From a virus: 64,000 bases of DNA. Within the stretch, counting starts at the first letter, position 1; each line of letters begins with the position of its first letter. The notes beneath the pieces are model-generated. The model was not told where the DNA came from and ran no database searches. It saw only the letters and a list, made by a program, of their open reading frames with translations. A program made the position numbers and the translations under genes. The stretch lies in IMG/VR virus record IMGVR_UViG_3300022902_000008. One strand, given 5' to 3'. Positions 14,563 through 59,990 of this stretch are shown here, one piece after another.

Positions 14563-14862
14563 ATGTCACATAAATATAAAGTTGGTGATATTGTATGGGT
14601 TAAAATTCCACCAGCAAAGGACATTAAAAATAGAAAACATAATAAACATTTTATTGCTGCCTGTGGTGGTTGCAGTTGTCTAGGAAGAGTCAGCAAAGTA
14701 TTAAATCAAAACGGTTTAAATAATAATAATAATATCTCAGGTTGGCATTATAATGTTGAGCTTTCATTGCTATTCCCGCTTGAGCTTAACAACTTGTCTG
14801 CTGTTGATGAAAAATATAAATGGTCTATTGCCGAAGAATGGATTGATAGAAAAATAAAATGA
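14563..14862 (+). CDS. SH3/KOW-like paralogue family protein
   Basis: KYKVGDIVWVKIP...EEWIDRKIK. Confidence 0.75.
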   Translation: MSHKYKVGDIVWVKIPPAKDIKNRKHNKHFIAACGGCSCLGRVSKVLNQNGLNNNNNISGWHYNVELSLLFPLELNNLSAVDEKYKWSIAEEWIDRKIK

Positions 14863-15107
14863 CTTATAAATACAAATATGAAATTGGTGATATTGTATGG
14901 GTTAAAGAGGCTTTTTATTGGCCAAGAAAAGGCAGCTATTCTTTTTATACTGGACCAGTAAGCATTGTTAGTTGTGGATTGTCAGGAAAATATGATCATG
15001 ATATAAGGGGGATTGTATATGTAGTCAGATTGCCTGTTGGGGTATATGAAGGTCTTAGTATTATTGGAGAAAGCCAAATAAAAGGTTTAATAAATGAAAA
15101 TTTATAA
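14859..15107 (+). CDS. SH3/KOW-like paralogue family protein
   Basis: YEIGDIVWV...YTGPVSIV. Confidence 0.75.
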   Translation: MTYKYKYEIGDIVWVKEAFYWPRKGSYSFYTGPVSIVSCGLSGKYDHDIRGIVYVVRLPVGVYEGLSIIGESQIKGLINENL

Positions 15108-15369
15108 ATATAAAGTTGGTGATATTGTTTGGGTTAAAATTCCAAACTTAAGAAATGTTAAAAATGAAAATTGTAAAGGACATGCAGTTGTAAAAAAGGG
15201 TGGTTGTACCTTTGTTGCTGTTATTTTTGAGGTATATTCTCATAACAATAAATTTGGTTCTTGGGATTATGTCATTTCATTGCCTATTGGTTTTAGTCTT
15301 GAATATGGCACTAAAAAACTTAAAGAGTGGGCTATTGTCAAAGAGTGGGTTAAAGGGAAAGTAAAATGA
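15094..15369 (+). CDS. SH3/KOW-like paralogue family protein
   Basis: KYKVGDIVWVKIP...KEWVKGK. Confidence 0.75.
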   Translation: MKIYKYKVGDIVWVKIPNLRNVKNENCKGHAVVKKGGCTFVAVIFEVYSHNNKFGSWDYVISLPIGFSLEYGTKKLKEWAIVKEWVKGKVK

Positions 15370-15578
15370 CTTATAAATATAAAATTGGTGATATTGTGTG
15401 GATTAACAACTATCAGCATATGTGTGCAGGGAAGTTCATAACGATGTCAGGTCTTGCTATTATTCAACAAAGTTACATAAATGGTTCTAAAAAATATCTA
15501 GTTTCTTGGGTTGGGTTGCTGTCTGGTCGTTGGGTAGCAATAACGGAGAAAGATATTGACAAAAAAATTAATGTTTAG
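15366..15578 (+). CDS. SH3/KOW-like paralogue family protein
   Basis: KYKIGDIVWIN...SGLAII. Confidence 0.75.
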   Translation: MTYKYKIGDIVWINNYQHMCAGKFITMSGLAIIQQSYINGSKKYLVSWVGLLSGRWVAITEKDIDKKINV

Positions 15579-15804
15579 ACATAGAAAAGGTGATATTGTT
15601 TGGGCTAGTTGTTATATTGTTAGCTTTAATGGCGTTCTTGGGTTTTATAGGTGGCAATCATTTTCAGGAGTAGGAATTGTTTATCACCCAAGATTTCCTG
15701 GCAAATGTGGTAATTATTATGAATATATTATTAAGTTTGGGGAGCATATATATGGAATAGCCAAAGCAGATTGCACAAAAGGAATAAATAATGAAACATT
15801 TTAA
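15556..15804 (+). CDS. SH3/KOW-like paralogue family protein
   Basis: RKGDIVWAS...FSGVGIV. Confidence 0.7.
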   Translation: MTKKLMFRHRKGDIVWASCYIVSFNGVLGFYRWQSFSGVGIVYHPRFPGKCGNYYEYIIKFGEHIYGIAKADCTKGINNETF

Positions 15805-16129
15805 GCACATTTTTAAAAAGAAAGGATATAAGATAGACTGGCAATATGATGATGGTATTGGTTATAGTAACAAACATCATATTGTTCGAATTCTTTATAA
15901 GGAAGGTAAAGGAGATACTGTTTCAATGGGATCAGCGAAGTATTTTGACAGGTGGGCTAACTCAAGTCATATTAATTGGGAAATTATGGAAAAAAATAAT
16001 AATTGGACTGAAAAAATGGTTGAAGAAGACTTTTTGAACAACCTCAGAAATGCTGAATGGTTATGTTTAATTATTGCAAGGTTGTTGCCAACTCTTTTTG
16101 ACAACCCTCTTTTTAGAATTGATTTGTGA
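15791..16129 (+). CDS. Hypothetical protein
   Basis: Overlaps the upstream gene; in operon. Confidence 0.6.
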   Translation: MKHFKHIFKKKGYKIDWQYDDGIGYSNKHHIVRILYKEGKGDTVSMGSAKYFDRWANSSHINWEIMEKNNNWTEKMVEEDFLNNLRNAEWLCLIIARLLPTLFDNPLFRIDL

Positions 16130-16134
16130 CTTAT

Positions 16135-16165
16135 GGTTAACAAACAGGGTTGGTTGTGGTATAAA
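16135..16165 (+). promoter_or_regulatory. GGTTAACA-class promoter
   Basis: GG-TTAACA-N17-TATAAA, TGTG extension. Confidence 0.85.
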
Positions 16166-16200
16166 GGTTTTATTGATTGATATTTAAAAGGAAGGGACAA

Positions 16201-16344
16201 ATGGAAAGTATCAATGAAAAAATGGTTTGTGAGTTTATTGGTTCTGTTGATTGGGACAACAATAAGGAAGTACAAAAGCAAGACATAGAAGATCGTTACG
16301 GTGAAAACACATGGGCCTCAGATGATGTTTGGGAACAGTTTTGA
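16201..16344 (+). CDS. Small acidic protein (47 aa), not in the ORF track
   Basis: MESINEKMVCEFIGSVDWDNNKEVQKQDIEDRYGENTWASDDVWEQF; follows the promoter and a purine-rich RBS (AAGGAAGGGA). Confidence 0.65.
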   Translation: MESINEKMVCEFIGSVDWDNNKEVQKQDIEDRYGENTWASDDVWEQF

Positions 16345-16565
16345 AATTTTATAGTAATGAAATTAGAAAGTTATGTTGGGTTGATGGAAGGGTAGGTTTT
16401 TCATTGGGTGATCATTATGTTTATCGAGATTTTGTTGGGCCATTAATGATTATTTTCAAAGATACGTCAATGAAACAACAAGCTTTATATCTTGGGTTTT
16501 ATTCCAAAGATGAATATATGTGTCTTGTTTCGGAAGATGCAATTAAGGACATTATAGAAGGCTGA
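16329..16565 (+). CDS. SH3/KOW-like paralogue family protein (start probably TTG 16341)
   Basis: LCWVDG...FVGPLMI. Confidence 0.65.
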   Translation: MGTVLKFYSNEIRKLCWVDGRVGFSLGDHYVYRDFVGPLMIIFKDTSMKQQALYLGFYSKDEYMCLVSEDAIKDIIEG

Positions 16566-16847
16566 TTGATGAAAAAAAATAAAAAGTATAAAGCTGGCGA
16601 TGTTATTTGGTATCAGATTCCACTAAAAGAAGTTGCGGAGCTTACTGATTATCAAGCTTTAATTAATAATCATTTTTTATTAAGCTTTAAAAGGGCTGTC
16701 AAAGGTCTTGCTATTATTTCTGAACAGTCTACATGGAACCCCTGGGATTATGATATTGTTTTTGCTAACAAGTTAATTGTTGATAGATTAGAAATTGGTG
16801 GTTGTCAGATTCCTGAAAGTTGGGTTTTGGAAAAGGTAGAGATATGA
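16566..16847 (+). CDS. SH3/KOW-like paralogue family protein
   Basis: KYKAGDVIWYQIP...KGLAII...ESWVLEK. Confidence 0.75.
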   Translation: MMKKNKKYKAGDVIWYQIPLKEVAELTDYQALINNHFLLSFKRAVKGLAIISEQSTWNPWDYDIVFANKLIVDRLEIGGCQIPESWVLEKVEI

Positions 16848-21184: not shown

Positions 21185-21460
21185 TTGATAAAGGTAAGAT
21201 CGAATGGGGGTCCAATGATTAGCAAAGAAATAGTTGAAGAGGGAAAAGCATATTGGGTTCAAGTTAGCCATATAGAGACATTTACTACTGGTTCTTTTTC
21301 TTATCCAATTAACTATACTGGCGTGGGGGTTGTCAATAGGAATAAATATTATAAAGAACATCCTTATTTTTTTATTAATTTGTCAAAACACACTACTAAT
21401 TATTTGTATATGGTTTTAGCCAAAAACATTAATTTTATTGAAAAGATAGGAGAGTTATAA
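21185..21460 (+). CDS. SH3/KOW-like paralogue family protein
   Basis: EGKAYWVQV...YTGVGVV. Confidence 0.6.
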   Translation: MIKVRSNGGPMISKEIVEEGKAYWVQVSHIETFTTGSFSYPINYTGVGVVNRNKYYKEHPYFFINLSKHTTNYLYMVLAKNINFIEKIGEL

Positions 21461-22084: not shown

Positions 22085-22486
22085 ATGGTTGATCAAAAGA
22101 ATAATTCTATATGGTTAGCATGGTTAGGGAAAGTTCTTTGGGTTGATTATAGTTTTATTCCTTATTATTATGTTAAAAATATTATAGATTATGAGCCAAT
22201 TAGAACAAAGACAGAAGCCGTTAAAAGACAATATTGTGGCCCTGCAATTGTTGCTGGTATTGATTTTGGAGTCAGCGATGCTTCAGGTGGAAATAAAAAT
22301 TTAACTTTTCCATATTATCAGTTACAATTAGCGAACAAGGAAGTTAATATTGAAAACAAAGTTTATAGTATTATTAGGCCCATAAGAAGAGATCCAACTG
22401 ACAACATTTGGTTAAACAGATATATATTTTTGGAATTGTTAAAAAATAATGGAGAGAAAGAAAAGGTTAAAGGAAACGAATGTTAG
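22085..22486 (+). CDS. SH3/KOW-like paralogue family protein
   Basis: GKVLWVD...YCGPAIV. Confidence 0.65.
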   Translation: MVDQKNNSIWLAWLGKVLWVDYSFIPYYYVKNIIDYEPIRTKTEAVKRQYCGPAIVAGIDFGVSDASGGNKNLTFPYYQLQLANKEVNIENKVYSIIRPIRRDPTDNIWLNRYIFLELLKNNGEKEKVKGNEC

Positions 22487-22764
22487 TTTGGATTAATGGT
22501 AAATGTGGTTATTGTGGGGTTGGGCTTGTACAATCAACATTAACATCTAGGGATACTGGAAGAGCATTATATATGATAAGTGTTCAAAATAATTCAGTTT
22601 ATAAATTTAAGAAATCTGAAATTGCGAAAGAGAATTACATTACTTTTGATAAAAAAATTAAAAGTGCTGAAGATTTAATGGTTTTTCATGGGATGGATTT
22701 TTTTAGTCATTTTACATATACAGACAAGACTGACTTAGTTTTAATGGGGAAGAAGGGTGGGTAA
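22480..22764 (+). CDS. SH3/KOW-like paralogue family protein
   Basis: LVWING..YCGVGLV. Confidence 0.65.
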   Translation: MLVWINGKCGYCGVGLVQSTLTSRDTGRALYMISVQNNSVYKFKKSEIAKENYITFDKKIKSAEDLMVFHGMDFFSHFTYTDKTDLVLMGKKGG

Positions 22765-23047
22765 TAAATTTAAAAATGGTGATTCTGTGTGGATTAATTG
22801 CACTTGTCCCTATTATGTTGGGCTTGGGATCATTATTCAGAAATATGGAAATGCATATATTACAAGAATTGCTAGCAAATCATTTGCAGTAGATTCTACA
22901 AGTTATCAAACAAGAAAGCTAAAGTGCAAATGGAATTTAGAAATGGCATTAGATTTATCATGTCATTTAAAACATCCTGTTGAGTATATATTTGACAATG
23001 TGTTATATTTACAAGAAGATCATTTAACATTAGTGGAGAAAAGATGA
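22757..23047 (+). CDS. SH3/KOW-like paralogue family protein
   Basis: KFKNGDSVWIN..YVGLGII. Confidence 0.7.
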   Translation: MGNKFKNGDSVWINCTCPYYVGLGIIIQKYGNAYITRIASKSFAVDSTSYQTRKLKCKWNLEMALDLSCHLKHPVEYIFDNVLYLQEDHLTLVEKR

Positions 23048-32285: not shown

Positions 32286-32547
32286 GAGAGAAAAAATGAT
32301 TAAGAATTATAAATTTTCAAAAGAAGTAGTTGCAAGATTAATGCTTATTCTACAAGAAGCCATTATGTTAGAACAAGATGCTGGTCAATTGATTGAAAAT
32401 ATCGTTTTGACTGAATCAAATAGAGAACTTGATGATGGTAAGGTTGAATTAACTCTTACAAACAAATATGTCGGTTCATTGTCTGAAGAAACTGCAAAAG
32501 CTGTTGAAGATTTTATCGGAACCAATGTTGATGGAAAAGAAGAATAA
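32260..32547 (+). CDS. Hypothetical protein (start probably 32296)
   Basis: AGGAG RBS before an internal ATG. Confidence 0.6.
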   Translation: MINQLKTSRREKMIKNYKFSKEVVARLMLILQEAIMLEQDAGQLIENIVLTESNRELDDGKVELTLTNKYVGSLSEETAKAVEDFIGTNVDGKEE

Positions 32548-32869
32548 AGAAAATATTCAAGTCGGAGATTTAATTTGGATTAAGAAAGCATATGCTTGGG
32601 CTAACAGTAATTATCAATTTAAGATGTATGATAAAAGACACAAAATAAAAGAATTAGGAGTAATTTATGTTGGGCCAGCAATTGTTGAGGAGTTAGTTTC
32701 AAAAGAAGAAAAGTTACATGATTTTATTGATTGTTATTTAAATAGAACATTGATTAGAGCAAAGCTTCTTAAGGAAATAGAACTTAAGGTCAAGAATTAT
32801 GGTAAGTGGCATGATGTTAAGGATGACATGGTTTTGGTTTCAATAAATGAATGGAGTTATGTGCAATGA
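32531..32869 (+). CDS. SH3/KOW-like paralogue family protein
   Basis: IQVGDLIWIK...YVGPAIV. Confidence 0.7.
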   Translation: MEKKNKENIQVGDLIWIKKAYAWANSNYQFKMYDKRHKIKELGVIYVGPAIVEELVSKEEKLHDFIDCYLNRTLIRAKLLKEIELKVKNYGKWHDVKDDMVLVSINEWSYVQ

Positions 32870-35253: not shown

Positions 35254-35284
35254 GGTTAACAAACCAAGTCAACTATGCTACAAT
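35254..35284 (+). promoter_or_regulatory. GGTTAACA-class promoter (leaderless gene downstream)
   Basis: TTAACA-N17-TACAAT; ATG at 35292. Confidence 0.8.
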
Positions 35285-35291
35285 GCTTCTT

Positions 35292-35504
35292 ATGAAATGG
35301 ATTAAGCCAACAAAAGAACAACTAGAGGGGTTAAAAGCTGGAACAATTATCTGGTTTAAACACATAAAGTATGATAATGAAAGTGTTTTTGTTATAATAG
35401 GAAGAAGTTCCCATCCTTCCCTTGATTATGAGGTCAAAATGTCAGGCGGTGAAATTGGAGACATATTTAAAAAAGAGATCAAATATATATTAAAGGAAGG
35501 TTGA
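35292..35504 (+). CDS. SH3/KOW-like paralogue family protein
   Basis: KAGTIIWFK...KKEIKY. Confidence 0.6.
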   Translation: MKWIKPTKEQLEGLKAGTIIWFKHIKYDNESVFVIIGRSSHPSLDYEVKMSGGEIGDIFKKEIKYILKEG

Positions 35505-35809
35505 TGATGATGTGTGAACCTAAAAAACGGTTTTTTAAAGTTTGGATCAAGGATCTGTCACATAATAAAGTTAGAAAATATAATTGGAGTTTTTGGATTA
35601 AATATCAAGGCTTAGCAATAATGGAAGAGTATAATTATAAAAACGGGTTATTTAAATCATATATCACACTAACCAATACTGTTGATAGACACGACAGCTA
35701 TTCAGGTACAATCAATAAAAATTGTATTCAAAAACTTACAACATCAAATAATATTTTGGAACTTATTCGTGATGGCTGTTTAGATGTTATTGAAGAGTTG
35801 AAAATTTAA
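35501..35809 (+). CDS. SH3/KOW-like paralogue family protein
   Basis: KVWIKD...YQGLAIM. Confidence 0.6.
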   Translation: MMMMCEPKKRFFKVWIKDLSHNKVRKYNWSFWIKYQGLAIMEEYNYKNGLFKSYITLTNTVDRHDSYSGTINKNCIQKLTTSNNILELIRDGCLDVIEELKI

Positions 35810-36847: not shown

Positions 36848-36866
36848 AAAAATAACACATAAAGAT

Positions 36867-36897
36867 GGTTAACAAATGGGGTTCTTTGTGTTATGAT
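36867..36897 (+). promoter_or_regulatory. GGTTAACA-class promoter (leaderless gene downstream)
   Basis: TTAACA-N17-TATGAT; ATG at 36904. Confidence 0.8.
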
Positions 36898-36903
36898 ACT
36901 CAT

Positions 36904-37173: not shown

Positions 37174-37364
37174 GGGAAACTGTTTGGGTTGAGCTTGGGG
37201 GCAAACATAATTATGTTGGTCCAGCATATTGTTATTATGTTAAAAAAGGCTCAGTTCGAACAATAATTTGGCTTAAATGGTCTAAAGGTGAAAATGTATT
37301 TGTTTCGGATAGGACAGATAGAGATAATAATATTATTAAACTTGAAAAAATAGAAGATGTATAG
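37131..37364 (+). CDS. SH3/KOW-like paralogue family protein
   Basis: PKVGETVWVE..YVGPA. Confidence 0.7.
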   Translation: MEGGQMGFNYVPKVGETVWVELGGKHNYVGPAYCYYVKKGSVRTIIWLKWSKGENVFVSDRTDRDNNIIKLEKIEDV

Positions 37365-38081: not shown

Positions 38082-38280
38082 GGGAGTTTTATCGCTAGTT
38101 GTTGGGTTTGTTTTAATTGGCATTGGGTTTTTTGTTGGGACAAATGTTAAAATGTTCAAAGAGATTAATTTTGTTCAAAAATATTTGCCAGGAAAAGATG
38201 CTGAAGAGTATCTTGAACTATATGATAAAATGATAGCTAATTACAAAAAAGATATAATTGAAAATGCAAGTAAAAAATAA
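38074..38280 (+). CDS. Small membrane protein
   Basis: One N-terminal hydrophobic helix (VLSLVVGFVLIGIGFFVG). Confidence 0.55.
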   Translation: MIEGVLSLVVGFVLIGIGFFVGTNVKMFKEINFVQKYLPGKDAEEYLELYDKMIANYKKDIIENASKK

Positions 38281-38518
38281 TTATGCTTCTGGAGATCTTG
38301 TATGGGTTAAGATTCCAAATATGGAAGATTTTCTTCCACATTATCATATTGTTTCTAATCATGGTGGGTATGTTGGGCTTGCTATAATCAGCTATAAGAT
38401 TGGGATAGGAAAAGAAAATCCTATAAAATATAATTACGCTTGCAAGCTGCCAGTGAAATTTGAGTCTTTTTATGGTTTTAATGTTAGGGATGAATGGATC
38501 ATTAGAAAGGTAAAATGA
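38258..38518 (+). CDS. SH3/KOW-like paralogue family protein
   Basis: SGDLVWVKIP...GGYVGLAII...DEWIIRK. Confidence 0.75.
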   Translation: MKMQVKNNYASGDLVWVKIPNMEDFLPHYHIVSNHGGYVGLAIISYKIGIGKENPIKYNYACKLPVKFESFYGFNVRDEWIIRKVK

Positions 38519-38754
38519 GCAAATATAAAATAGGTGATGTTGTTTGGGTTGATGGAAAGTTTTCAAATTGGGAATATAAATTGATCGGGCCAGTTGTTAT
38601 TATGGGAGATGAAGTTGATATTATGTCAGGGCTTTATCGTTCTGATGCGGATTATATTGTTAATAGAGTTAATTATCATTTTGAACTTCTGGGATCAATA
38701 GTGAGATCTACAATCAGAGAAGAGTGGATTAAATATAGGGTTAAAAATGCTTAA
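38515..38754 (+). CDS. SH3/KOW-like paralogue family protein
   Basis: KYKIGDVVWVD...IGPVVI...EEWIK. Confidence 0.75.
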   Translation: MSKYKIGDVVWVDGKFSNWEYKLIGPVVIMGDEVDIMSGLYRSDADYIVNRVNYHFELLGSIVRSTIREEWIKYRVKNA

Positions 38755-39082
38755 AAATTTAAGAGATATTAAAAAGGGTGATATAGTTTGGGTTAATAAT
38801 TTAGAATATACTCCGTCGTGGATGCCTTCAAAATTAAAACTTTATAAACATAACTATGTTGGCTTTGGCATTGTTAGCTATAATCATTCAAGTAATTTTT
38901 CTATATTATTAAATGTTTCACATATGGATGTAGATATTTTTTCTATTAATAAAAATAAAACAAAAAAATGGCTTGGAAAAAACACTAGTGTTACTATATT
39001 TGAACGTAAAGAGATTTGTTCAATTAGAAAGAATAAACACACTGCAAAATATGTTACAATAATAGGAAATATTAATGATTAG
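38747..39082 (+). CDS. SH3/KOW-like paralogue family protein
   Basis: KKGDIVWVN...YVGFGIV. Confidence 0.75.
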   Translation: MLKNLRDIKKGDIVWVNNLEYTPSWMPSKLKLYKHNYVGFGIVSYNHSSNFSILLNVSHMDVDIFSINKNKTKKWLGKNTSVTIFERKEICSIRKNKHTAKYVTIIGNIND

Positions 39083-39392
39083 CTTAAACATTAATAAAGG
39101 AGACTTGTTATGGTTTAACAATGTTGAAATGCATGGTAATTTAGTTGAAGGAAATAAATATATACAAATTATTAAATATGTTGGGCCAGGGATTGTTAAG
39201 GAGGTTTTTGCATATAATAATTGTTTCAAAGTTAAGCCATTAAATAATGTAGGGGTAGGGGAGATAATATATAAAATTATTGATGGAGAGGGGTTGGTGT
39301 ATGATCAACATAACACTAAAGGCGAGCGTTATTGTTTTCTTGTAGACAAGCGACAAGTTAAAAATCTAAATCAGATGATAAAAAGGATATAA
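39075..39392 (+). CDS. SH3/KOW-like paralogue family protein
   Basis: KGDLLWFN...YVGPGIV. Confidence 0.75.
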   Translation: MISLNINKGDLLWFNNVEMHGNLVEGNKYIQIIKYVGPGIVKEVFAYNNCFKVKPLNNVGVGEIIYKIIDGEGLVYDQHNTKGERYCFLVDKRQVKNLNQMIKRI

Positions 39393-42831: not shown

Positions 42832-42862
42832 GGTTAACAGAATGTTTTGTTTGTGCTATAAT
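42832..42862 (+). promoter_or_regulatory. GGTTAACA-class promoter
   Basis: TTAACA-N17-TATAAT, TGTG extension. Confidence 0.85.
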
Positions 42863-42911
42863 ATGGTCTAAGGAGATCAAAATATGAAACAGTTGATGAT
42901 TGGATGGCTTA

Positions 42912-43109
42912 ATGAAAAACAAAAAATATAAAGTTGGTGAACATGTTTGGATTGATATAGGATTTTATTGTGGCCCTGCAATTATAGAGAAAGAGGACGT
43001 TGATGAAAAGTGGTTATTTGGCTATAATGTTAAAATTATGGGTGCAATGAAGGATAATATTTGGATTTCTAGAAAAGAAATTAAAGGGTTAAACAATGAC
43101 AATGCCTAG
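42912..43109 (+). CDS. SH3/KOW-like paralogue family protein
   Basis: KYKVGEHVWID..YCGPAII. Confidence 0.75.
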   Translation: MKNKKYKVGEHVWIDIGFYCGPAIIEKEDVDEKWLFGYNVKIMGAMKDNIWISRKEIKGLNNDNA

Positions 43110-43341
43110 ATTGGTATTAGGGCAAAGGGTTAACTTGAAGGGTGATGTCGCATGGCTCTCTAGTTGTAGAGAAAGTGGTTATTATGAAGGGCCAGTTAGG
43201 TTAATATCTAAGTTTCATAATTTATATTTATGTGAAGTTCCAATGGAGGTTTTTATCGAATTTAGTTCAACAAGAAGAAAAAATAAAACTAGAAGCTTTT
43301 GGATTATGGAAGATAAAATTAAAATGATTAAAAGGGCATAA
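43096..43341 (+). CDS. SH3/KOW-like paralogue family protein
   Basis: LGQRVNL...YEGPVRL. Confidence 0.6.
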   Translation: MTMPRLVLGQRVNLKGDVAWLSSCRESGYYEGPVRLISKFHNLYLCEVPMEVFIEFSSTRRKNKTRSFWIMEDKIKMIKRA

Positions 43342-43345: not shown

Positions 43346-43699
43346 ATGACTTATATACATAAAGATAAAAAGGAATGGGGTAGTTATAATAAAAATGATA
43401 TTAATTATGGAAAATGGATTAAAAGATATAAAAATAACAAGATATATGAAATTTCTAAGTTATTAACTACAACAAAAAACTTATTAAATGGAACAAATAA
43501 ATTATATGGTTTTAAAGTTGGTGAATTAGTTTGGGTTAATCATGAATTATATAGAGGGGTCGGGATAATAAAGCATTTTAGGTTTTTAGAACTGCAAAAG
43601 AGAGTTGTTGTTACTAGCTCTTATCCTTTTGCGATTATAGCTAACAAATATGGCAAGAAAGATTTAGAATGTACAAAAGAAATGATAAGAAAAGCATGA
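43346..43699 (+). CDS. SH3/KOW-like paralogue with N-terminal extension
   Basis: FKVGELVWVN..YRGVGII. Confidence 0.7.
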   Translation: MTYIHKDKKEWGSYNKNDINYGKWIKRYKNNKIYEISKLLTTTKNLLNGTNKLYGFKVGELVWVNHELYRGVGIIKHFRFLELQKRVVVTSSYPFAIIANKYGKKDLECTKEMIRKA

Positions 43700-44573: not shown

Positions 44574-45299
44574 TTGAAGAAGGAAAAAGTTTATATTTAT
44601 CCAAATGAAAAAGAAAAAATTGGTTGTGTTGAATATGTCGATCACATGGGATCAGATAAAGATATTGTTAATGCGGCAAGAGCAAGTGTTGGTAAAGAAA
44701 GTAAAAAGCCATTCTCAGAAAAAGATAGAGAGTTAATGAAATATCTTATAGAAAATAAACACACCAGTCCTTTTGAACATGTTAAGCTTAAGTGTAGGTT
44801 TACTGTTCCATTGTTTGTTAGAAGTCAACATATGAGGCACAGATTATGGAATTTCAATGAATTAAGTCGGAGATTCACAGACAAAGATATCCAATTTTAT
44901 TTACCGAAATCATTTAGGACACAACATGAAAATAATATACAAGCAAGTAACAATGACTCAATTAATCCAAAAATTCATACTTGTGTTTCTATGGGTGAAA
45001 GCAAATTAGCAGATTTGTTAGTTGAGTCCACTACAAATAAATGTTTTATTGCATATCAAAAGTTATTAGATGCAAATATTACAAGAGAGCAAGCAAGAAT
45101 GATTCTTCCTCAAAACTTATATACAACTTATATTGGAACCTGTGATCTTCATAATTTATTTCATTTTTTATCATTAAGGCTTGGTGAACATGCTCAATAT
45201 GAAATTAGAGTTGTTGCTGAGGCATTATTGTATTATTGTGAACAGTTATTCCCGGAAGCGACAAGCTTATTTAAGGAGGTTAGGTTAGATGACATATAG
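44574..45299 (+). CDS. thyX: Flavin-dependent thymidylate synthase
   Basis: IVNAARAS, HTSPFEH, RHR.WNFNELSRR, EQARMILP, LRL..HAQYEIR. Confidence 0.95.
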   Translation: MKKEKVYIYPNEKEKIGCVEYVDHMGSDKDIVNAARASVGKESKKPFSEKDRELMKYLIENKHTSPFEHVKLKCRFTVPLFVRSQHMRHRLWNFNELSRRFTDKDIQFYLPKSFRTQHENNIQASNNDSINPKIHTCVSMGESKLADLLVESTTNKCFIAYQKLLDANITREQARMILPQNLYTTYIGTCDLHNLFHFLSLRLGEHAQYEIRVVAEALLYYCEQLFPEATSLFKEVRLDDI

Positions 45300-45540
45300 A
45301 GCTTTTGAATCACATAGTTGTTGTAGACTGAAAGATGGGTTTTTAGTTGAAGTGGGTGGGTCATATTGGGTTAATATCTGTGCTGATAGGGTTAGAAATT
45401 ATAAAGGGCCAATTGTTGTTGATAGTATTGAAGCTGTAGTTTTTGATGGTGATTATACTTTTAGCATAGGCGTAAAAAAGTCTATAGGTGGTTTTTGTTT
45501 TGTGACGTTCGATGAGATAACGGTTATTTGTGAAATTTGA
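45289..45540 (+). CDS. SH3/KOW-like paralogue family protein
   Basis: VGGSYWVN...YKGPIVV. Confidence 0.65.
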   Translation: MTYRAFESHSCCRLKDGFLVEVGGSYWVNICADRVRNYKGPIVVDSIEAVVFDGDYTFSIGVKKSIGGFCFVTFDEITVICEI

Positions 45541-46174: not shown

Positions 46175-46594
46175 ATGAACGATATTACTATAAATATACC
46201 CAATAAAAGCTATCAGTTTAAAGAAGGTGATTATGTTTGGGTTAACAATGCTGACTACAAGGGCTTAGGATTTGTTGATAGGGTTTCCAAATGGGATATT
46301 GAGAAAAGCCAATATAAAATTTGTATAATTTCAAAAACTGACCAAAAAAAAATTAATGAAAGTTGGTACGCACCAGCATCAGCACCAACAGCAAAAAAAA
46401 TAAAAGACATTAATGTTAATGTTTATTCTACGATTCAAGGAGATATCCAAGGAGAGATCAGCAAAGAAATCTTTAATATGATGATGCACAATGTATATAA
46501 CAATGAAAAAATATATTTAATAAACACTATGTTTAGCAAATATGAGGTTTTTAAAGAAATAGAAATAGAGTTGATGGAGGAAAAAAATGAGTGA
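46175..46594 (+). CDS. SH3/KOW-like paralogue family protein
   Basis: FKEGDYVWVN..YKGLGFV. Confidence 0.7.
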   Translation: MNDITINIPNKSYQFKEGDYVWVNNADYKGLGFVDRVSKWDIEKSQYKICIISKTDQKKINESWYAPASAPTAKKIKDINVNVYSTIQGDIQGEISKEIFNMMMHNVYNNEKIYLINTMFSKYEVFKEIEIELMEEKNE

Positions 46595-53399: not shown

Positions 53400-53630
53400 A
53401 TGAGAAGAAAAAAAAGAGTACAGTTTAATGTGGCAGAAAAAATTTGGGTATGTATTGAGAACATCATAGAAAGGTATGAGGGGGTGGGCAAAATAGTCGG
53501 GTCAGAATATAAAAAATATGGTTATTATTATGTTAAAATTCCGAAACCAATAAATCAAACATATGATCATTTAGTTTATTGGGATAAAATAAAGAAAATA
53601 AAAAATGGAGAACCGATTGAGCATGAATAA
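53400..53630 (+). CDS. SH3/KOW-like paralogue family protein
   Basis: FNVAEKIWV...YEGVGKIV. Confidence 0.7.
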   Translation: MRRKKRVQFNVAEKIWVCIENIIERYEGVGKIVGSEYKKYGYYYVKIPKPINQTYDHLVYWDKIKKIKNGEPIEHE

Positions 53631-53961: not shown

Positions 53962-54291
53962 TTGAAGTCAGGCAGCAAGCTTGGAGAATTAAATCTTTAT
54001 TTTCTTAATTTAGATCAAAAAACATTAGCAGATATGATTTGGAAAGTTAACATCCACCAAGCTCTTTACAAGGGAATAACAATTCCAGATCAAACTTATT
54101 ATGGCCCAGTCATTCTAGATAGAAGAAAAATTGGTTGGGATATATTATTATTTCCAAAAAAAATTAAAATGATTAAAACAAGTGAGTACTACATTGGCGT
54201 AGTAAGATCATCAGCTAACTTTAAAAGCGATAGCCTAGATCTTAATTATGCTATTCATTCAGAAGTGGTTAACAAACTAATAGAAATATGA
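53962..54291 (+). CDS. SH3/KOW-like paralogue family protein (divergent)
   Basis: DMIWKV...YYGPVIL...LFPKK. Confidence 0.6.
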   Translation: MKSGSKLGELNLYFLNLDQKTLADMIWKVNIHQALYKGITIPDQTYYGPVILDRRKIGWDILLFPKKIKMIKTSEYYIGVVRSSANFKSDSLDLNYAIHSEVVNKLIEI

Positions 54292-54297
54292 TATAAT
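54267..54297 (+). promoter_or_regulatory. GGTTAACA-class promoter (leaderless gene downstream)
   Basis: TTAACA-N17-TATAAT; ATG at 54305. Confidence 0.85.
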
Positions 54298-54304
54298 GTT
54301 TTTC

Positions 54305-54585
54305 ATGAAAAGAAAAAGCTATAAGGTTGGAGATACAATTTGGATTAAATCAGGATTACAAATGGAAAGTTTCATCGAACTGATGGTCCTGCTGCTGAAT
54401 ATCATGATGGATTAAAATATTGGTATCTAAATGATCAGTTTTATGATCACATCAAAGGAAAGTTGCACAACAACAACTTCCTGATATCAGACAAATATAC
54501 AGGACCAGTAATAATAACGGGAGGAAAAAATAAAACAAAGTTCATGAGAACAATGAACAACAAACACTTGGTAATTGAACCATAA
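54305..54585 (+). pseudogene. Out-of-frame chimera of an SH3/KOW-family 5' end and an HRTDGPA-repeat gene 3' end
   Basis: MKRKSYKVGDTIWIKS (frame stops at 54415), then in the -1 frame NGKFHRTDGPA...KGKLHNNNFL...VIEP* to 54585. Confidence 0.75.
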
Positions 54586-54834: not shown

Positions 54835-54865
54835 GGTTAACAAAGTGAATGGTTTGTGGTATTGT
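54835..54865 (+). promoter_or_regulatory. GGTTAACA-class promoter
   Basis: TTAACA-N17-TATTGT, TGTG extension. Confidence 0.75.
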
Positions 54866-54883: not shown

Positions 54884-55237
54884 ATGAACAACAAGCCAAC
54901 AATGAAAGAATATTCTGATGGGACAAAAGAATGGTGGTTGAATGGAGCGTTGCACAGAGAGGATGGTCCGGCTGGAGAATATCCTAGTGGATCAAAACGT
55001 TGGTATTTAAATGGGCTTCTATATCGAGAAGATGGCCCTGCTGTTGAATGGGCTAATGGAGAGAAATTTTGGTGGTTAAATAGTCAAGATTATGAATATA
55101 CCAAAGGAAAGCTGCACAACAATAACTTCTTAACATCAGATCAATATACAGGGCCAATAATAATAATGGGGGGAAAGAATAAAATAAGGTTCATGAAGGC
55201 AACAAACAATAAACATTATGTTATTAAAGGCTATTAA
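54884..55237 (+). CDS. HREDGPA repeat protein, copy 2
   Basis: MNNKPTM.EY..G.K.WWLNG..HREDGPA; conserved tail. Confidence 0.85.
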   Translation: MNNKPTMKEYSDGTKEWWLNGALHREDGPAGEYPSGSKRWYLNGLLYREDGPAVEWANGEKFWWLNSQDYEYTKGKLHNNNFLTSDQYTGPIIIMGGKNKIRFMKATNNKHYVIKGY

Positions 55238-55240: not shown

Positions 55241-55468
55241 ATGAACATCCAATATAAAGATATAAAAATCAATGATGTGGTCTGGTTTAAAACAATAAAT
55301 AATGAATATGGTTCTGGAATTGGAATTGTCATAGATAAACGGTGTGAAGAGGTAAATAAAATATATGTTAAAATTCCAACCATCCACTTAAATGAAGAAG
55401 GCTATAAACTTCATTATATATTTCCCTTTGAGATTAAAAAGATAATTAAAAAAGGTAAAACTAAATAA
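55241..55468 (+). CDS. SH3/KOW-like paralogue family protein
   Basis: IKINDVVWFK...SGIGIV. Confidence 0.7.
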   Translation: MNIQYKDIKINDVVWFKTINNEYGSGIGIVIDKRCEEVNKIYVKIPTIHLNEEGYKLHYIFPFEIKKIIKKGKTK

Positions 55469-55736
55469 ATTCAAGAAGTTTATGCATTTTAAAATAATTA
55501 AAATGATGAATGGATATTGTAATTGACTTGTTATATCTTGGCACAAGCCTGCCAATATTAACAGGATATAGATAATTTAAAACCTTGTGTGGAAAATAAA
55601 TAATAACAAGATCAGTATTGTTGCCACAAGAACAAACAATTGCAGGTCCAATATATAAACAATCAACACAGGCGTTGTTCGAATGATATATGTTAAGCAA
55701 ATGCCTGTTAATCCATATGTTGTGTTTGTTGGTCAA
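55461..55736 (-). CDS. SH3/KOW-like paralogue (IWIxK subfamily)
   Basis: IWINRH...YIGPAIV...FPHK. Confidence 0.7.
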   Translation of the reverse strand: MTNKHNIWINRHLLNIYHSNNACVDCLYIGPAIVCSCGNNTDLVIIYFPHKVLNYLYPVNIGRLVPRYNKSITISIHHFNYFKMHKLLEFI

Positions 55737-55990
55737 TCCAAAACCTCAATACATCCTTCAGATATTAAATAATCTAACTCAAGACCATTATAATAACCAA
55801 GTATGTCAGAAGATTGAACACGATTGTTAACTTTAATGTTAATCTTATAAGGAAAAGAAATGTAATAATCTGTTGAGCCAAACCTTGTTGTTGGCTTTAT
55901 AATACAAGGACCAATATAATTATAATAGAAGTTTGGAGGACTCGAACCCTCGATATGTTTATGAATCCATATTTTCCTTAATTTGTTCAT
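55733..55990 (-). CDS. SH3/KOW-like paralogue (IWIHK subfamily)
   Basis: MNKLRKIWIHKH...YIGPCII...FPYK. Confidence 0.75.
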   Translation of the reverse strand: MNKLRKIWIHKHIEGSSPPNFYYNYIGPCIIKPTTRFGSTDYYISFPYKINIKVNNRVQSSDILGYYNGLELDYLISEGCIEVLD

Positions 55991-56020: not shown

Positions 56021-56353
56021 TTATTCATATGAGATAAAAAATAATAATCAAACATAACTGATTGCACCTTTAGATACCAAATTAATAAATAATTCATTGT
56101 TAATAACAGCAACATTATCCTTACAAAGAATACCAATTGCAGGAGGATAATTAATAACGTTTATCTTTTTAGGAAATAAAATATTATGATAATCAAAATT
56201 ATATTTCCTTATCCTTAATATTGCTGGGCCAATATAATCATAATAATAGTTTAGATTTGTACTTATGATATGTTTATGAATCCATATGTTTTTTAGTTTG
56301 TTCATGTGATCCTTTTATTCATATGAGATAAAAAATAATAATCAAACATAACT
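56021..56353. repeat. 39-bp perfect direct repeat (56021-56059, 56315-56353)
   Basis: ttattcatatgagataaaaaataataatcaaacataact occurs twice, spanning stop codons of adjacent paralogues. Confidence 0.9.
56048..56305 (-). CDS. SH3/KOW-like paralogue (IWIHK subfamily)
   Basis: MNKLKNIWIHKH...YIGPAIL...FPKK. Confidence 0.75.
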   Translation of the reverse strand: MNKLKNIWIHKHIISTNLNYYYDYIGPAILRIRKYNFDYHNILFPKKINVINYPPAIGILCKDNVAVINNELFINLVSKGAISYV

Positions 56354-56605
56354 AATATAACCTTCAGATAACAATCTTTCTAATTGTACATGTTCAAATG
56401 GTTGACCAAATTTAATATTATATTTATAATATATGCTTTTACTATTGTTGAATTTTGTTAATGTTACCTTTCTAGGAAATATAATATTATAATAACCAGA
56501 ATCAAATCGGCTTGTTGTCAATAAAGCAAAACCAATGTATTTATAATGATAATCTACATGATATGCAGTAGGCATTGTAATATTCTTATGAATCCATATA
56601 ACCAT
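56342..56605 (-). CDS. SH3/KOW-like paralogue (IWIHK subfamily)
   Basis: IWIHKN...YIGFALL...FPRK. Confidence 0.75.
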   Translation of the reverse strand: MVIWIHKNITMPTAYHVDYHYKYIGFALLTTSRFDSGYYNIIFPRKVTLTKFNNSKSIYYKYNIKFGQPFEHVQLERLLSEGYISYV

Positions 56606-56948: not shown

Positions 56949-57272
56949 CTACATTATAGCACAAGATGGTGTATTTGTTAACCTATTTGGGGGATTTATT
57001 TTATATAAAATGCTTTTTTTGCAAACTGAGAAGGCTTCGTATTTACTTATGAGAGCAAGGGAATTTATGGTATATGCAGTGCATGAGAAGTTTTTTAAGC
57101 TAAAAAATGTTCTTAAGCTAGGGTTTTCTGTTATTATTGCCAACCCCATATAGATTAATTTATTTTTTTTGATCTCATGATTATTTTCATGTTCAAAGTA
57201 AGCTATGACATGTTCATATACTTTAACCCAAACTATGTCACCTTTTTTATATTTTGGTTTGCTGTTATTCAT
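56949..57272 (-). CDS. SH3/KOW-like paralogue family protein
   Basis: KPKYKKGDIVWVK...YMGLAII. Confidence 0.75.
   Translation of the reverse strand: MNNSKPKYKKGDIVWVKVYEHVIAYFEHENNHEIKKNKLIYMGLAIITENPSLRTFFSLKNFSCTAYTINSLALISKYEAFSVCKKSILYKINPPNRLTNTPSCAIM
56953..56983 (-). promoter_or_regulatory. GGTTAACA-class promoter
   Basis: Reverse complement GG-TTAACA-N17-TATAAT. Confidence 0.85.
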
Positions 57273-57622
57273 TGTTCCTTAATTACCAAGTATGTATTGT
57301 TTGTTGTTTTCATGAATCTTATTTTATTTTTCCCCCCCATTATTATTATTGGCCCTGTATATTGATCTGATATCAGGAAGTTATTATTGTGCAGTTTTCC
57401 TTTGATGTGACTATAATGTTGATCATTGAGAAACCATTCTTTATATCCATCAAAACAATCATATGCAGGACCATTTTCACGATGACGTTCTCCACTTAGA
57501 TACCATATTTTTGTTCCGTTGGAATGTTCAATAGCAGGCCCATCAGTTCGATGACACTCTCCATTTAGATACCATCGTTTTGATCCATCAGGATATTCTT
57601 TCATTATTGGCTTGTTGCTCAT
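57269..57622 (-). CDS. HRxDGPA repeat protein, copy 3
   Basis: MSNKPIM..HRTDGPA..HRENGPA; conserved tail. Confidence 0.85.
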   Translation of the reverse strand: MSNKPIMKEYPDGSKRWYLNGECHRTDGPAIEHSNGTKIWYLSGERHRENGPAYDCFDGYKEWFLNDQHYSHIKGKLHNNNFLISDQYTGPIIIMGGKNKIRFMKTTNNTYLVIKEQ

Positions 57623-57646: not shown

Positions 57647-57677
57647 AATATACCACAACAAGGTTGATTTGTTAACC
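57647..57677 (-). promoter_or_regulatory. GGTTAACA-class promoter
   Basis: Reverse complement TTAACA-N17-TATATT. Confidence 0.85.
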
Positions 57678-57910: not shown

Positions 57911-58111
57911 TTACGGGCTTATATGGTAAGCGGAAGAGAAGGTTGAGACAGGAAAGTGTACACAACTAGTTGTTGGTGTTAATCCTGGCCAAATTACTTT
58001 ATAATAAATTGGTTTAGATTTTTTATAAATATAGCCAATAACAATTATTGGTCCAACATAGTTTTTATGGGTAATCCACACAACATTATTTATTTTATAT
58101 TCTGGTTTCAT
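57911..58111 (-). CDS. SH3/KOW-like paralogue family protein
   Basis: EYKINNVVWIT..YVGPIIV...WPGL. Confidence 0.7.
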   Translation of the reverse strand: MKPEYKINNVVWITHKNYVGPIIVIGYIYKKSKPIYYKVIWPGLTPTTSCVHFPVSTFSSAYHISP

Positions 58112-58115
58112 ATAG

Positions 58116-58349
58116 TTATTTTATGTCACAAAACAAATAATGTTTATGCATAGGCAAGTGTACATATCTAATTGATGATTTTAATCCTGGCCAAGTTAGT
58201 TTATAGTATTGCAGTTCTATATCTTGATCATCAAAATATGGTTTGTGTGTGGTATAGCCAACAATAATAGCTAGTCCTTTATATGGTGGGTATTGATCAT
58301 AGTTAATCCATATTACATCTCCAGGTTTATATTCTAGTTTTGGTTTCAT
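58116..58349 (-). CDS. SH3/KOW-like paralogue family protein
   Basis: EYKPGDVIWIN..YKGLAII...WPGL. Confidence 0.75.
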   Translation of the reverse strand: MKPKLEYKPGDVIWINYDQYPPYKGLAIIVGYTTHKPYFDDQDIELQYYKLTWPGLKSSIRYVHLPMHKHYLFCDIK

Positions 58350-58549
58350 GTAGTTACTTCTCCTTTTATATGGTGGTTGCCTATGCACCAACAATCTGAA
58401 TCCATTGTTTTTATATCATAAGCGCCATATGGTAAAACATTTGTTATTATTGCAATACCATAATATTTATATCTAATTGGATTTATTGGTGATTGAACAT
58501 GTATCCATATGGCATCACCTATTTTATATTTTGGTTTGTTGTTATTCAT
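58346..58549 (-). CDS. SH3/KOW-like paralogue family protein
   Basis: KPKYKIGDAIWIH...YYGIAII. Confidence 0.75.
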   Translation of the reverse strand: MNNNKPKYKIGDAIWIHVQSPINPIRYKYYGIAIITNVLPYGAYDIKTMDSDCWCIGNHHIKGEVTT

Positions 58550-58968
58550 TGTTCCTCAATTACCAAATATTTATTGTTTATTGTTCTCATGAACTTTATT
58601 TTATTTTTTCCTCCCATTATTATTACTGGACCTGTATACTGATCTGATACTAAGAAATTGTTGTTGTGCAGCTTCCCTTTGATATGATAATAAAGTATGT
58701 CATTTAGATACCATACAAATGTTCCATCAGAATATTCAACAGCAGGACCATCTTCTCTATGATGGTTCCCATTTAGATACCATGATTTTGTTCCATCAGG
58801 ATATTCAACAGCAGGACCATCAATTCGATGATGCTTTCCATTTAACCACCATTCTTTATGGCCATTAGAATCTTCAACAGCAGGGCCATCAGTTCGATGA
58901 AAATAGCCATTTAGGTGCCATGATTTTGTTCCATTAGGATGTTCTGTCATTATTGGCTTGTTGCTCAT
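58546..58968 (-). CDS. HRxDGPA repeat protein, copy 4 (three repeats)
   Basis: HRTDGPA, HRIDGPA, HREDGPA; conserved tail. Confidence 0.85.
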   Translation of the reverse strand: MSNKPIMTEHPNGTKSWHLNGYFHRTDGPAVEDSNGHKEWWLNGKHHRIDGPAVEYPDGTKSWYLNGNHHREDGPAVEYSDGTFVWYLNDILYYHIKGKLHNNNFLVSDQYTGPVIIMGGKNKIKFMRTINNKYLVIEEQ

Positions 58969-58992
58969 GATTCCTCCCTTTCAACTGACAAC

Positions 58993-59023
58993 AATATACC
59001 ACAACCAACTTCATTTGTTAACC
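58993..59023 (-). promoter_or_regulatory. GGTTAACA-class promoter (divergent pair, leftward)
   Basis: Reverse complement TTAACA-N17-TATATT. Confidence 0.85.
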
Positions 59024-59063
59024 TATTTCAAGAAATATTTTATTAAAAAAAGTTTATTTATGG

Positions 59064-59094
59064 GGTTAACAAACGGGATAGTTTGTGGTATAAG
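59064..59094 (+). promoter_or_regulatory. GGTTAACA-class promoter (divergent pair, rightward)
   Basis: TTAACA-N17-TATAAG, TGTG extension. Confidence 0.8.
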
Positions 59095-59119
59095 GGTGTT
59101 GAAGGAGGGAGAAAATAAA

Positions 59120-59374
59120 ATGAGCCAACCAAAATATAAGTTAGGAGACATAGTTTGGGTTAAAACGGATAATACTAATTATCCTGAAGATCTTACTGAT
59201 CATAACAATAACAATAAGATATATTATCAATTAGCAAGGATACAAAATTGGTATTTAAGGGAAAAGGAAGTTTCAGATAAATCTTTTACTATATATACAG
59301 TTAAATATTGTTGCAATACTTTTTTGTTGAACAATGTTTCAGAGATGGAAATACTGAGGAAGGAGGACATTTAA
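59120..59374 (+). CDS. SH3/KOW-like paralogue family protein
   Basis: PKYKLGDIVWVK...VSEMEI; AAGGAGG RBS. Confidence 0.75.
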   Translation: MSQPKYKLGDIVWVKTDNTNYPEDLTDHNNNNKIYYQLARIQNWYLREKEVSDKSFTIYTVKYCCNTFLLNNVSEMEILRKEDI

Positions 59375-59638
59375 ATGCTAACACAGAAGATTTTTAATCC
59401 TGTTGATTATTATTTTGAATGGACTGATGATGGATGGTATGAGTGGGATCGAAGGGCGGCTCACACAATGGCTCTTAAGGATCGGAACAAGAAAGTAAGG
59501 GAGCTAAGAGGGAAAGGACACAAGGTTTCAGTCTTCAGTCTTTCAGGCCAGTTAATTACAAAGGGTGGAATTGGAACTGGGAAGCCTCAAGTAGAGTTTG
59601 TTGTTAATTGTTATGGTTACAATATGTGGGGAAAATAA
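59375..59638 (+). CDS. Hypothetical protein
   Basis: AAGGAGG RBS. Confidence 0.65.
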   Translation: MLTQKIFNPVDYYFEWTDDGWYEWDRRAAHTMALKDRNKKVRELRGKGHKVSVFSLSGQLITKGGIGTGKPQVEFVVNCYGYNMWGK

Positions 59639-59639
59639 A

Positions 59640-59990
59640 ATGATTATTAATGGAAAAGAGTATCCAACAGTGTACCCAACTAAGGAAGATGTTGTTTATA
59701 ATTATAAGGTGGGTGACATTATTTATTTTAAGGTATTAAATGACAGTATTTATATTGAAGTGGTTAACCTTGTTAATGATAAGATATTATCTCCTGGCAG
59801 AAGAATTAGTAGAGAAGGAGATTTTTATGTTTTAGATTCTCCTCGTTGTCTCATAGGTATAATTGATTTTTGTGATTATGTTAATGAATGTGATTATTAT
59901 TATCCTGTTTACACTGTTGTTACGCTTAATGATAAGCAATCAATCAATGTTTCAGAATTAGAGATTGTAGAAAGGGTTGAGGCTTCATGA
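59640..59990 (+). CDS. SH3/KOW-like paralogue family protein
   Basis: YKVGDIIYFK...VSELEI. Confidence 0.7.
   Translation: MIINGKEYPTVYPTKEDVVYNYKVGDIIYFKVLNDSIYIEVVNLVNDKILSPGRRISREGDFYVLDSPRCLIGIIDFCDYVNECDYYYPVYTVVTLNDKQSINVSELEIVERVEAS

Follow-up and report, generated by a model that had tools for sequence, protein, structure and literature searches.

Large families of paralogues are rare in phages, and one region of the virus record IMGVR_UViG_3300022902_000008 raises the question of why a scaffold of 70-100 amino acids (aa) should take up about 40% of the genes over 46 kb. We analyzed a window of 64,000 nt from this record and, within it, the region from 14.2 to 60.4 kb, in which a preliminary description had recognized about 45 small SH3/KOW-like open reading frames (ORFs), about 30 of them unambiguous. 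We found that these genes are a genuine, lineage-specifically expanded family of stand-alone small SH3-like (Tudor/chromo-barrel-like) barrels. As to their role, we give about an even chance to the view that they would be early proteins acting as binding modules of differing specificity against host components, in takeover or counter-defence.

How large is the family, and where does it end? A regular expression for the N-terminal motif matched 11 ORFs in the window. A hidden Markov model (HMM) of the kind that the preliminary description had proposed, seeded with these matches and iterated over all window ORFs of at least 35 aa, converged at 40 ORFs and had 0 matches in a 10-fold shuffled ORF set. 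By alignment the 40 comprise 33 core proteins, five HREDGPA-repeat proteins and two fragments of one broken gene. The core proteins are 66-139 aa long, carry the motif K-Y-K-x-G-D-x-V-W-V ... Y-x-G-[PL]-A-I-I and are mutually mostly 20-37% identical. With leave-one-out (LOO) profiles as a stricter test of membership, 26 of the 33 were recovered at E<1e-3 and 31 at E<1e-2, the marginal cases being 35283-35504 and 59640-59990. A wider profile, which is the core profile enriched with foreign homologues, gained the ORFs starting at 22480, 37131, 43096 and 45289 and a gene fragment at E<1e-3, with 45530, 17203 and 53962 as weaker candidates. At least four further strong members lie past the window end (64592, 67089, 67755 and 73089 in window numbering), which brings the total to 33-43 members in the window plus at least four beyond it.

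The earlier count was thus a fair one, except that it had probably also taken in the HREDGPA-repeat genes, which belong to a distinct, linked family. Together the two families make up 40 of the 93 genes between 14.2 and 60.4 kb, or 11.9 kb. The arrays had been placed correctly at 14.5-17.5, 21-23, 32.5, 35-39, 43-46 and 53-60 kb, and we found the copies on both strands (minus-strand copies at 55.4-59.0 kb) and the translational coupling (seven stop/start ATGA overlaps checked) that had been described; the VWVKIP, IWIHK and WPGL subfamilies are likewise discernible. The members are:

14563..14862, plus strand: core, VWVKIP subfamily; LOO E 6.3e-5
14859..15107, plus: core, ATGA overlap with upstream gene; LOO E 6e-8
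15094..15369, plus: core, VWVKIP subfamily; LOO E 1.2e-9
15366..15578, plus: core, ATGA overlap; LOO E 2.2e-10
15556..15804, plus: core; LOO E 1.6e-3, wider-profile E 1.2e-9
16566..16847, plus: core; LOO E 3.8e-10
21215..21460, plus: core; LOO E 7.8e-4
22085..22486, plus: core with C-terminal extension; LOO E 4.7e-3, wider-profile E 4.2e-10
22480..22764, plus: probable diverged member; wider-profile E 4.1e-4
22757..23047, plus: core, overlaps start of 5'-3' exonuclease gene; LOO E 1.3e-5
32531..32869, plus: core; LOO E 1.8e-7
35283..35504, plus: marginal core; LOO E 0.083, wider-profile E 8.7e-11
35501..35809, plus: core, links IWIHK subfamily; LOO E 8.6e-5, subfamily-out E 8.3e-4
36865..37173, plus: core, database form (P0012) starts at 36904; LOO E 9.8e-8
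37131..37364, plus: probable diverged member; wider-profile E 3.3e-4
37357..37608, plus: core; LOO E 5e-6
38258..38518, plus: core; LOO E 3.1e-8
38515..38754, plus: core, modelled as a five-strand barrel (see below); LOO E 3e-7
38747..39082, plus: core; LOO E 5.7e-7
39075..39392, plus: core, ends 2 nt before DnaE; LOO E 1.6e-4
42900..43109, plus: core, minimal (69 aa), Tudor-knot-like model (see below); LOO E 5.6e-8
43096..43341, plus: probable diverged member; wider-profile E 4.1e-5
43346..43699, plus: core with N-terminal extension; LOO E 1.3e-4
45289..45540, plus: probable diverged member; wider-profile E 1e-4
46175..46594, plus: core with long C-terminal tail; LOO E 2.4e-3, wider-profile E 2.1e-8
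53400..53630, plus: core; LOO E 2.9e-3, wider-profile E 2.2e-13
55241..55468, plus: core; LOO E 5e-4
55461..55736, minus: core, IWIHK-type; LOO E 9e-3
55733..55990, minus: core, IWIHK subfamily, model without Tudor-cluster match (see below); LOO E 8e-7
56048..56305, minus: core, IWIHK subfamily; LOO E 2.8e-4
56342..56605, minus: core, IWIHK subfamily; LOO E 4.2e-6
56949..57272, minus: core, ATGA-coupled to lead gene 57269-57622; LOO E 9.7e-9
57911..58111, minus: core, WPGL subfamily; LOO E 2.6e-6
58116..58349, minus: core, WPGL subfamily; LOO E 5.5e-8
58346..58549, minus: core, ATGA-coupled to lead gene 58546-58968; LOO E 2.6e-9
59120..59374, plus: core; LOO E 4.4e-7
59640..59990, plus: marginal core, Y in place of W; LOO E 0.19, wider-profile E 2.3e-10

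What has been kept among such diverged copies? About 12 positions are conserved in the core alignment (W 97%, G 85%, Y 79%, Y 73%, plus alternating hydrophobics), and they define the strands and turns KYKxGDxVW, YxGPAII, Yx[IV] and IxxxI. Most of the remaining columns have an entropy of about 3 bits or more, which is near maximal, and the loops between the conserved blocks span 8-33, 11-27 and 16-46 residues; the tails, like the loops, are free to differ in sequence and length. Column entropy and loop spacing bear out the claimed pattern of conserved strands with hypervariable loops.

Divergence on this scale raises the question of whether the majority of the copies might be spurious ORFs, or duplicates that are neutral or in decay, spread by cassette duplication at repeated promoters. 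One copy (54296-54585) is indeed a broken chimera, terminal branches in the family tree are extremely long, and the ratio of nonsynonymous to synonymous substitution (dN/dS) among core paralogues is uninformative because dS is saturated even between the closest pairs. However, all 33 core frames are intact in a genome of 31% GC, tightly packed and often translationally coupled, and purine-rich Shine-Dalgarno (SD)-like sites lie upstream of most of them. The scaffold residues are retained amid otherwise randomized sequence, and homologous arrays are still present in relatives with a DnaE diverged to 56% identity. We consider neutral decay highly improbable. The intact packed frames, the SD-like sites and the positions that stay conserved in the proteins although the DNA has diverged, together with the same motifs in eight foreign protein clusters and the dN/dS of the linked lead genes (given below), are several lines of sequence evidence indicating that the core members are real genes.

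To which fold do they belong? An AlphaFold2 (AF2) model of 38515-38754, computed from a 33-row alignment, reached a predicted local distance difference test (pLDDT) score of 80.7 and has five strands forming an SH3-like barrel. The conserved blocks map onto strand beta-1 (GDxVWV), beta-2 (YxGPAII), beta-3 (Yx[IV]) and the last strands (I...IxxxI). Comparing the model with 48,161 chains in VIA-align brought up structures of Tudor, chromo-barrel, BAH, PWWP, R67 DHFR, Spt5/NusG KOW and YorP at Z 6-8, of which Z 7-8 is the level that the program's own note calls typical of common arrangements. Sm proteins, a PWWP-ssDNA complex and Tudor-like domains that bind RNA polymerase (CarD, the UvrD C-terminus and Mfd) were also among the matches. 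Foldseek gave template modelling (TM) scores of 0.5-0.63 to the same barrel classes, none at E<1e-3, and BFVD and Atlas contributed many unnamed small phage and bacterial barrels. The Atlas ESMFold model of a second member, 42900-43109, matched Tudor-knot clusters at TM 0.72-0.80. On these models the main group is a small SH3-like barrel, the IWIHK group being unconfirmed.

The shared barrel scaffold proposed earlier is thus upheld by the AF2 model, the fold matches and the second Atlas model, but the proposed KOW/NusG/YorP membership finds no counterpart in Pfam, and the fold matches at Z 6-8 do not stand out from those to dozens of unrelated SH3-like barrels. Searching Pfam-A with the 33 members at E<=1 gave no recurrent family; KOW (PF00467; 0 of 33), SH3, Tudor-knot (PF11717), PWWP (PF00855) and YorP (PF09629) were all absent, and YorP appeared only as a structure (2heq, Z 6.6). 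Scattered sub-threshold matches were all that Pfam, PHROGs, NCBIfam and PADLOC produced, assigning no family, and a profile search of all PDB sequences had no match. By eye, GDxVW ... YxGPA recalls the strand motifs of PWWP domains, which is a lead and not a test, and the W, Y and Y that are conserved may belong to the core or to an aromatic cage.

These searches bear directly on the suggestion that the members are NusG-KOW mimics hijacking Rho, NusE or RNA polymerase. NusG/Spt5 KOW domains and the Tudor-like domains that bind RNA polymerase do occur among the fold matches. Yet the KOW matches (Z 6.3-6.8) rank below many unrelated barrels, the Pfam KOW profile matches none of the 33, and 40 diverged copies would be superfluous for a single mimic. 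We give this suggestion almost no credence.

Is the expansion peculiar to one genome? When 1.84 billion cluster representatives were scanned with a HMMER profile, 33 matched at E<1e-3, 25 from the window and eight foreign, and a word-indexed search added a few more homologues, all unnamed and all metagenomic. The foreign members derive from uncultured phage contigs, several of them with arrays:

L096: 14 members in a 20-kb locus (34-kb contig), arrays on both sides of a DnaE 56% identical to that of the window, in the same relative position
L095: 8 members on a 5-kb contig with GGTTAACA promoter motifs
L012/L098: 6-7 members, tandem copies
L105 and L106: 8 and 4 members, low-GC contigs, tandem
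L103/L104: 2 members each, contigs of 41-42% GC, tandem pair

One more contig has the same gene order of exonuclease, DnaB, intein-containing ribonucleotide reductase (RNR) and AAA ATPase. Longer fused forms of the family were not found, which is weak evidence by the search tool's own account, and a back-translated KYKVGDIVW pattern found only two single-copy phage ORFs of higher GC without the remaining motif set.

A maximum-likelihood tree of 60 members leaves most forks unresolved. Its genome labels nevertheless cluster beyond chance (0 of 200 shuffles as low), and each well-supported clade unites tandem neighbours of one genome; we therefore conclude that the repertoire reflects local duplication and turnover and not a fixed ancient set. 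Terminal branches are very long (median 1.5 changes per site), those of the window copies being far longer than those of the relatives. Tens of homologues in one genome, clustered by genome, constitute a lineage-specific paralogue expansion.

The relatives also carry other genes near their arrays. In L096 the stretches 1379-8204 and 15064-15927 beside the arrays encode MT-A70, an N6_N4 methyltransferase, three Dam-like genes, a nucleoside deoxyribosyltransferase, a TAGT-family gene and a faint QueC-like gene, and an IS605-type insertion with Y1 transposase and TnpB lies at 4512-6064. The array region of L012/L098 (L012 6108-6632, 9360-9959 and 10471-11613) holds an HNH endonuclease, an opposite-strand LAGLIDADG-like gene and an RtcB RNA ligase. 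The only relative in IMG/VR recognized through DnaE (IMGVR_UViG_3300045988_181817; 20% identity, 21.6% GC) has 0 members in its 22.8 kb.

How are the arrays organized for expression? A repeat search in the window revealed a repeated intergenic element, GGTTAACAAA-N11-TGTGnTATAnT, which can be read as a -35-like hexamer (TTAACA) separated by a 17-nt spacer from an extended -10. The pattern GTTAACA-N14-TGnTATnnT, with one mismatch allowed, has 17 matches against 0.21 expected. Sixteen of these predicted promoters are intergenic or at gene ends, and 11 lie directly upstream of arrays or lead genes (the HREDGPA-repeat genes described below); all of the following fit the GTTAACA pattern:

14146..14175, plus strand: promoter before a lead gene and a 5-member array
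16136..16165, plus: promoter before the 16.2-17.8 kb array
35255..35284, plus: promoter before the 35283 and 35501 members
36868..36897, plus: promoter before the 36.9-39.4 kb array
42833..42862, plus: promoter before the 42.9-46.6 kb array
54268..54297, plus: promoter before the broken chimera
54836..54865, plus: promoter before lead gene 54884
56953..56982, minus: promoter before four IWIHK-type members
57647..57676, minus: promoter before lead gene 57622-57269
58993..59022, minus: promoter before lead gene 58968-58546, divergent from 59065
59065..59094, plus: promoter before the 59120-60373 cassette

Four of them (14146+, 54836+, 57676- and 59022-) precede a lead gene followed by 1-5 core genes, and the divergent pair 59022-/59065+ faces two cassettes in opposite directions. 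The GGTTAACA promoter motif is also present in the array contigs L095 and L098. Scanned for generic promoters and terminators, the window showed no enrichment, the specific GTTAACA motif alone being enriched. Repeated strong host-type promoters before clusters of small genes mark the early regions of T4-like and SPO1-like phages, and it is because of this resemblance that we regard the cassettes as probably early. Five more copies of the promoter, with A/T-rich upstream tracts, are crowded into 1.5 kb at 60356-61827 before small ORFs outside the family, and a strong terminator lies near this cluster at 61114-61140.

What heads the cassettes? The five lead proteins consist of 2-4 units of G-x-K-x-W-x-L-N-G-x-x-H-R-x-D-G-P-A, each of about 23 aa, followed by a 45-aa tail. 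They are mutually 55-70% identical, with a dN/dS of 0.33-0.46. Because the core-only profile reaches them only at E 0.005-0.2, we kept them out of the core as a separate, linked family. These genes, and a related chimera, are:

14200..14559, plus strand: lead gene, MORN-like by eye; 55-70% identical paralogues
54884..55237, plus: lead gene, AF2 modelled; beta-hairpin repeats
57269..57622, minus: lead gene; paralogue identity, repeats, dN/dS
58546..58968, minus: lead gene with one extra repeat; paralogue identity, repeats, dN/dS
59987..60373, plus: HREDGPA-repeat gene closing an array; paralogue identity, repeats, dN/dS
54296..54585, plus: frame-broken chimera, core-type N-terminus (KSYKVGDTIWIK) followed by a lead-gene body; three-frame translation, DNA alignment to lead genes, repeats D1/D4

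Against the Pfam MORN models the lead proteins gave no match at E<=1, the only hit being a sub-threshold DUF6745 stretch. AF2 modelled the repeats as hairpins at pLDDT ~70, for which Foldseek returned weak rows only (CPAP G-box, MORN1). The C-terminal 45 aa, with the 'YTGPVIIMG' / 'YTGPVIIMGGKNKIRF' part, a conceivable half-barrel, were modelled at pLDDT <50. In the chimera the join lies at the point where a repeat unit can be aligned with the core beta-1 motif, which hints at recombination or shared ancestry between the core and lead families. The chimera has a promoter copy of its own and may represent a pseudogene or the product of recombination; a programmed frameshift is a less likely alternative.

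In what kind of genome do these cassettes lie? The window has a GC content of 31% with a strong G excess on the coding strand. Its sequence is also found on a metagenome contig of 216,854 bp (ENA ERZ27250217 k141_98222, positions 32015-96014), and we read the source as an uncultured jumbo phage of about 217 kb. Searches of INPHARED and IMG/VR found no close relative of this phage, and no tRNAs were found in the window. Shorter contigs from many separate ENA, JGI and Logan samples match the window at 99.98-100% identity over 1-20 kb; such near-identity across samples (L001, L003-L011, L013 and L014) would mean either that the phage population is unusually clonal or that the samples share a single site or time series. 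The JGI samples that contain the phage include 3300022912 and 3300024260. The window encodes a replication and nucleotide-metabolism module with a PolA-like polymerase, an HD protein, a gp32-like single-stranded DNA-binding protein, RecA with an intein, Hsp70/DnaK, a 5'-3' exonuclease, a DnaB-like helicase, RNR with an intein, an AAA ATPase, MT-A70 and a second methyltransferase, ThyX and a DnaE-type Pol III alpha. The inteins, seen as Intein_splicing/HINT matches inside the host-protein match, lie in RecA (12358-14019) and in the class-II-like RNR (25701-28565); the intein in the RNR of one relative bears a LAGLIDADG domain. The Hsp70/DnaK is full-length (17796-19709; Pfam HSP70 E 9e-222).

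This setting invites the reading that the members are accessory subunits or adaptors of the neighbouring replication and repair machines, such as DnaE, the 5'-3' exonuclease or the phage Hsp70. Member 39075-39392 ends 2 nt before DnaE, 22757-23047 overlaps the exonuclease start, and in L096, too, a member lies directly upstream of DnaE; small SH3-fold genes have also been noted upstream of another class of jumbo-phage DNA polymerase (Iyer et al., PMC7824862). However, there are far fewer replication enzymes than the forty-odd diverged copies, no enzyme lies near many of the arrayed copies (53-60 kb, both strands), and the sets of copies vary between relatives, so that we regard this reading as unlikely.

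What, then, might the proteins do? In the mechanism we favour, the translationally coupled cassettes, most headed by a sigma-70/T4-early-like promoter and several beginning with a lead gene, would be transcribed early by host RNA polymerase. The barrel proteins would serve as binding modules that differ in specificity and are directed at components of the host, and the repertoire would turn over through tandem duplication, divergence and loss. One scaffold filling about 40% of the genes, in arrays that recur, points to a strong and ongoing selective pressure to diversify a single fold, a pattern expected of molecules in host-virus conflict. The idea of a binder repertoire, already put forward in the preliminary description, is plausible. 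In the form of a phage-encoded library of single-domain binders, in which the loops of each paralogue would recognize their own defence protein or host factor and cassettes of promoter and lead gene would be the units that are duplicated and reshuffled, we put it forward only tentatively.

Several results count against this interpretation or limit it. With the IWIHK subfamily wholly removed from the profile, only 2 of its 6 members are still found at E<0.01, which makes the IWIHK link the weakest part of the family, and Tudor-like clusters were not among the matches of the Atlas model for the IWIHK member 55733-55990. The fold matches of the main group are generic (Z<=8) and carry no functional information. 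Early transcription by host RNA polymerase is suggested by the sequence of the predicted sigma-70/T4-early-type promoter alone. Selection on the loops is not measurable from populations because the available contigs are 99.98-100% identical. The phage Hsp70 gives no clue to the host, since it is 50-57% identical to proteins spread over many bacterial phyla.

The charge of the members belongs here as well, because it speaks to the possibility that they are nucleic-acid-binding factors, either gene-specific regulators of transcription or translation or structural DNA- or RNA-binding proteins. Nucleic-acid binding is common among SH3-like barrels, with KOW, Sm, PWWP and the PWWP-ssDNA complex among the matches, and most members are basic (median isoelectric point, pI, 9.1). 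The same role has been proposed for the roughly 35 Zn-ribbon copies of phage G, an expansion of a like kind (Iyer et al., 2021, PMC7824862). Yet unrelated small proteins of this AT-rich phage have a similar pI (p=0.91), and we rejected pI as a clue to nucleic-acid binding. Several members are in addition acidic (pI 4.4-6.8), and none matches any nucleic-acid-binding family by sequence in Pfam or the PDB. A nucleic-acid-binding role is in our view possible but rather doubtful.

If the members do bind different targets, they would offer a panel for finding host vulnerabilities and defence systems and a compact natural binder scaffold. Were the binder-library reading true, no larger gene family for counter-defence or host takeover would be known from a bacteriophage. 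The family in any case merits a Pfam or PHROGs profile, as more than 40 genes in this phage are now annotated as unrelated hypothetical proteins.

How does the family compare with known systems? Among folds, the best structural matches are five-stranded barrels of the Royal family (Tudor, chromo-barrel, PWWP, BAH) at the generic level of Z 7-8 (root-mean-square deviation, rmsd, 1.9-2.7 A over 56-64 residues), but neither PF11717 and PF00855 nor any PDB chain gives a profile match, and here the barrels are stand-alone phage proteins. With the KOW domains of NusG, Spt5 and L24 it shares a small SH3-like barrel and a Gly-containing turn before a hydrophobic strand; the Pfam KOW profile is unmatched, however, there is no NGN fusion or ribosomal context, and other barrels rank higher. 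YorP of the B. subtilis SPbeta prophage (PDB 2heq) is likewise a stand-alone small phage-borne barrel (rmsd 2.3 A over 63 residues at the Z given above), but the Pfam YorP profile does not match, and we know of no expansion of YorP into arrays.

Among genomic arrangements, the host-takeover module of SPO1 and the early hyperplastic regions of T4 are clusters of small genes with multiple strong host-type early promoters and strong ribosome-binding sites, set amid replication genes. Those clusters encode mostly unrelated small proteins, whereas here one family accounts for about 40% of the genes. Giant eukaryotic viruses carry paralogue expansions of ankyrin, MORN and F-box proteins, their large genomes being inflated by the birth and death of a single binding scaffold. 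Here, too, MORN-like repeat proteins accompany the arrays, but the present case is a bacteriophage, and its proteins are single domains of 70-100 aa with another fold and not repeat arrays.

The closest parallel in the literature, which we searched though not exhaustively, is Bacillus phage G, with about 35 Zn-ribbon copies in a lineage-specific expansion (Iyer, Anantharaman, Krishnan, Burroughs, Aravind, 2021, PMC7824862). Because of this published precedent the kind of expansion is already known, and the statement in the preliminary description that no family of this size had been described in one phage stands only in part: no described family matches the present one, but the roughly 35 Zn-ribbons of phage G are a precedent for its size. 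What appears to be undescribed is the family itself, together with its size, the occurrence of this fold class in such an expansion, the lead-gene cassette layout and the recurrence in an uncultured phage clade. In both cases a jumbo phage has multiplied one small domain of unknown role into tens of diverged copies. They differ in that the domain of phage G is a Zn-ribbon, whereas here an SH3-like barrel is present in at least 40-50 copies; these lie in cassettes with a promoter at the head and a second family, of repeat proteins, linked to them, and they recur as arrays in several related phages.

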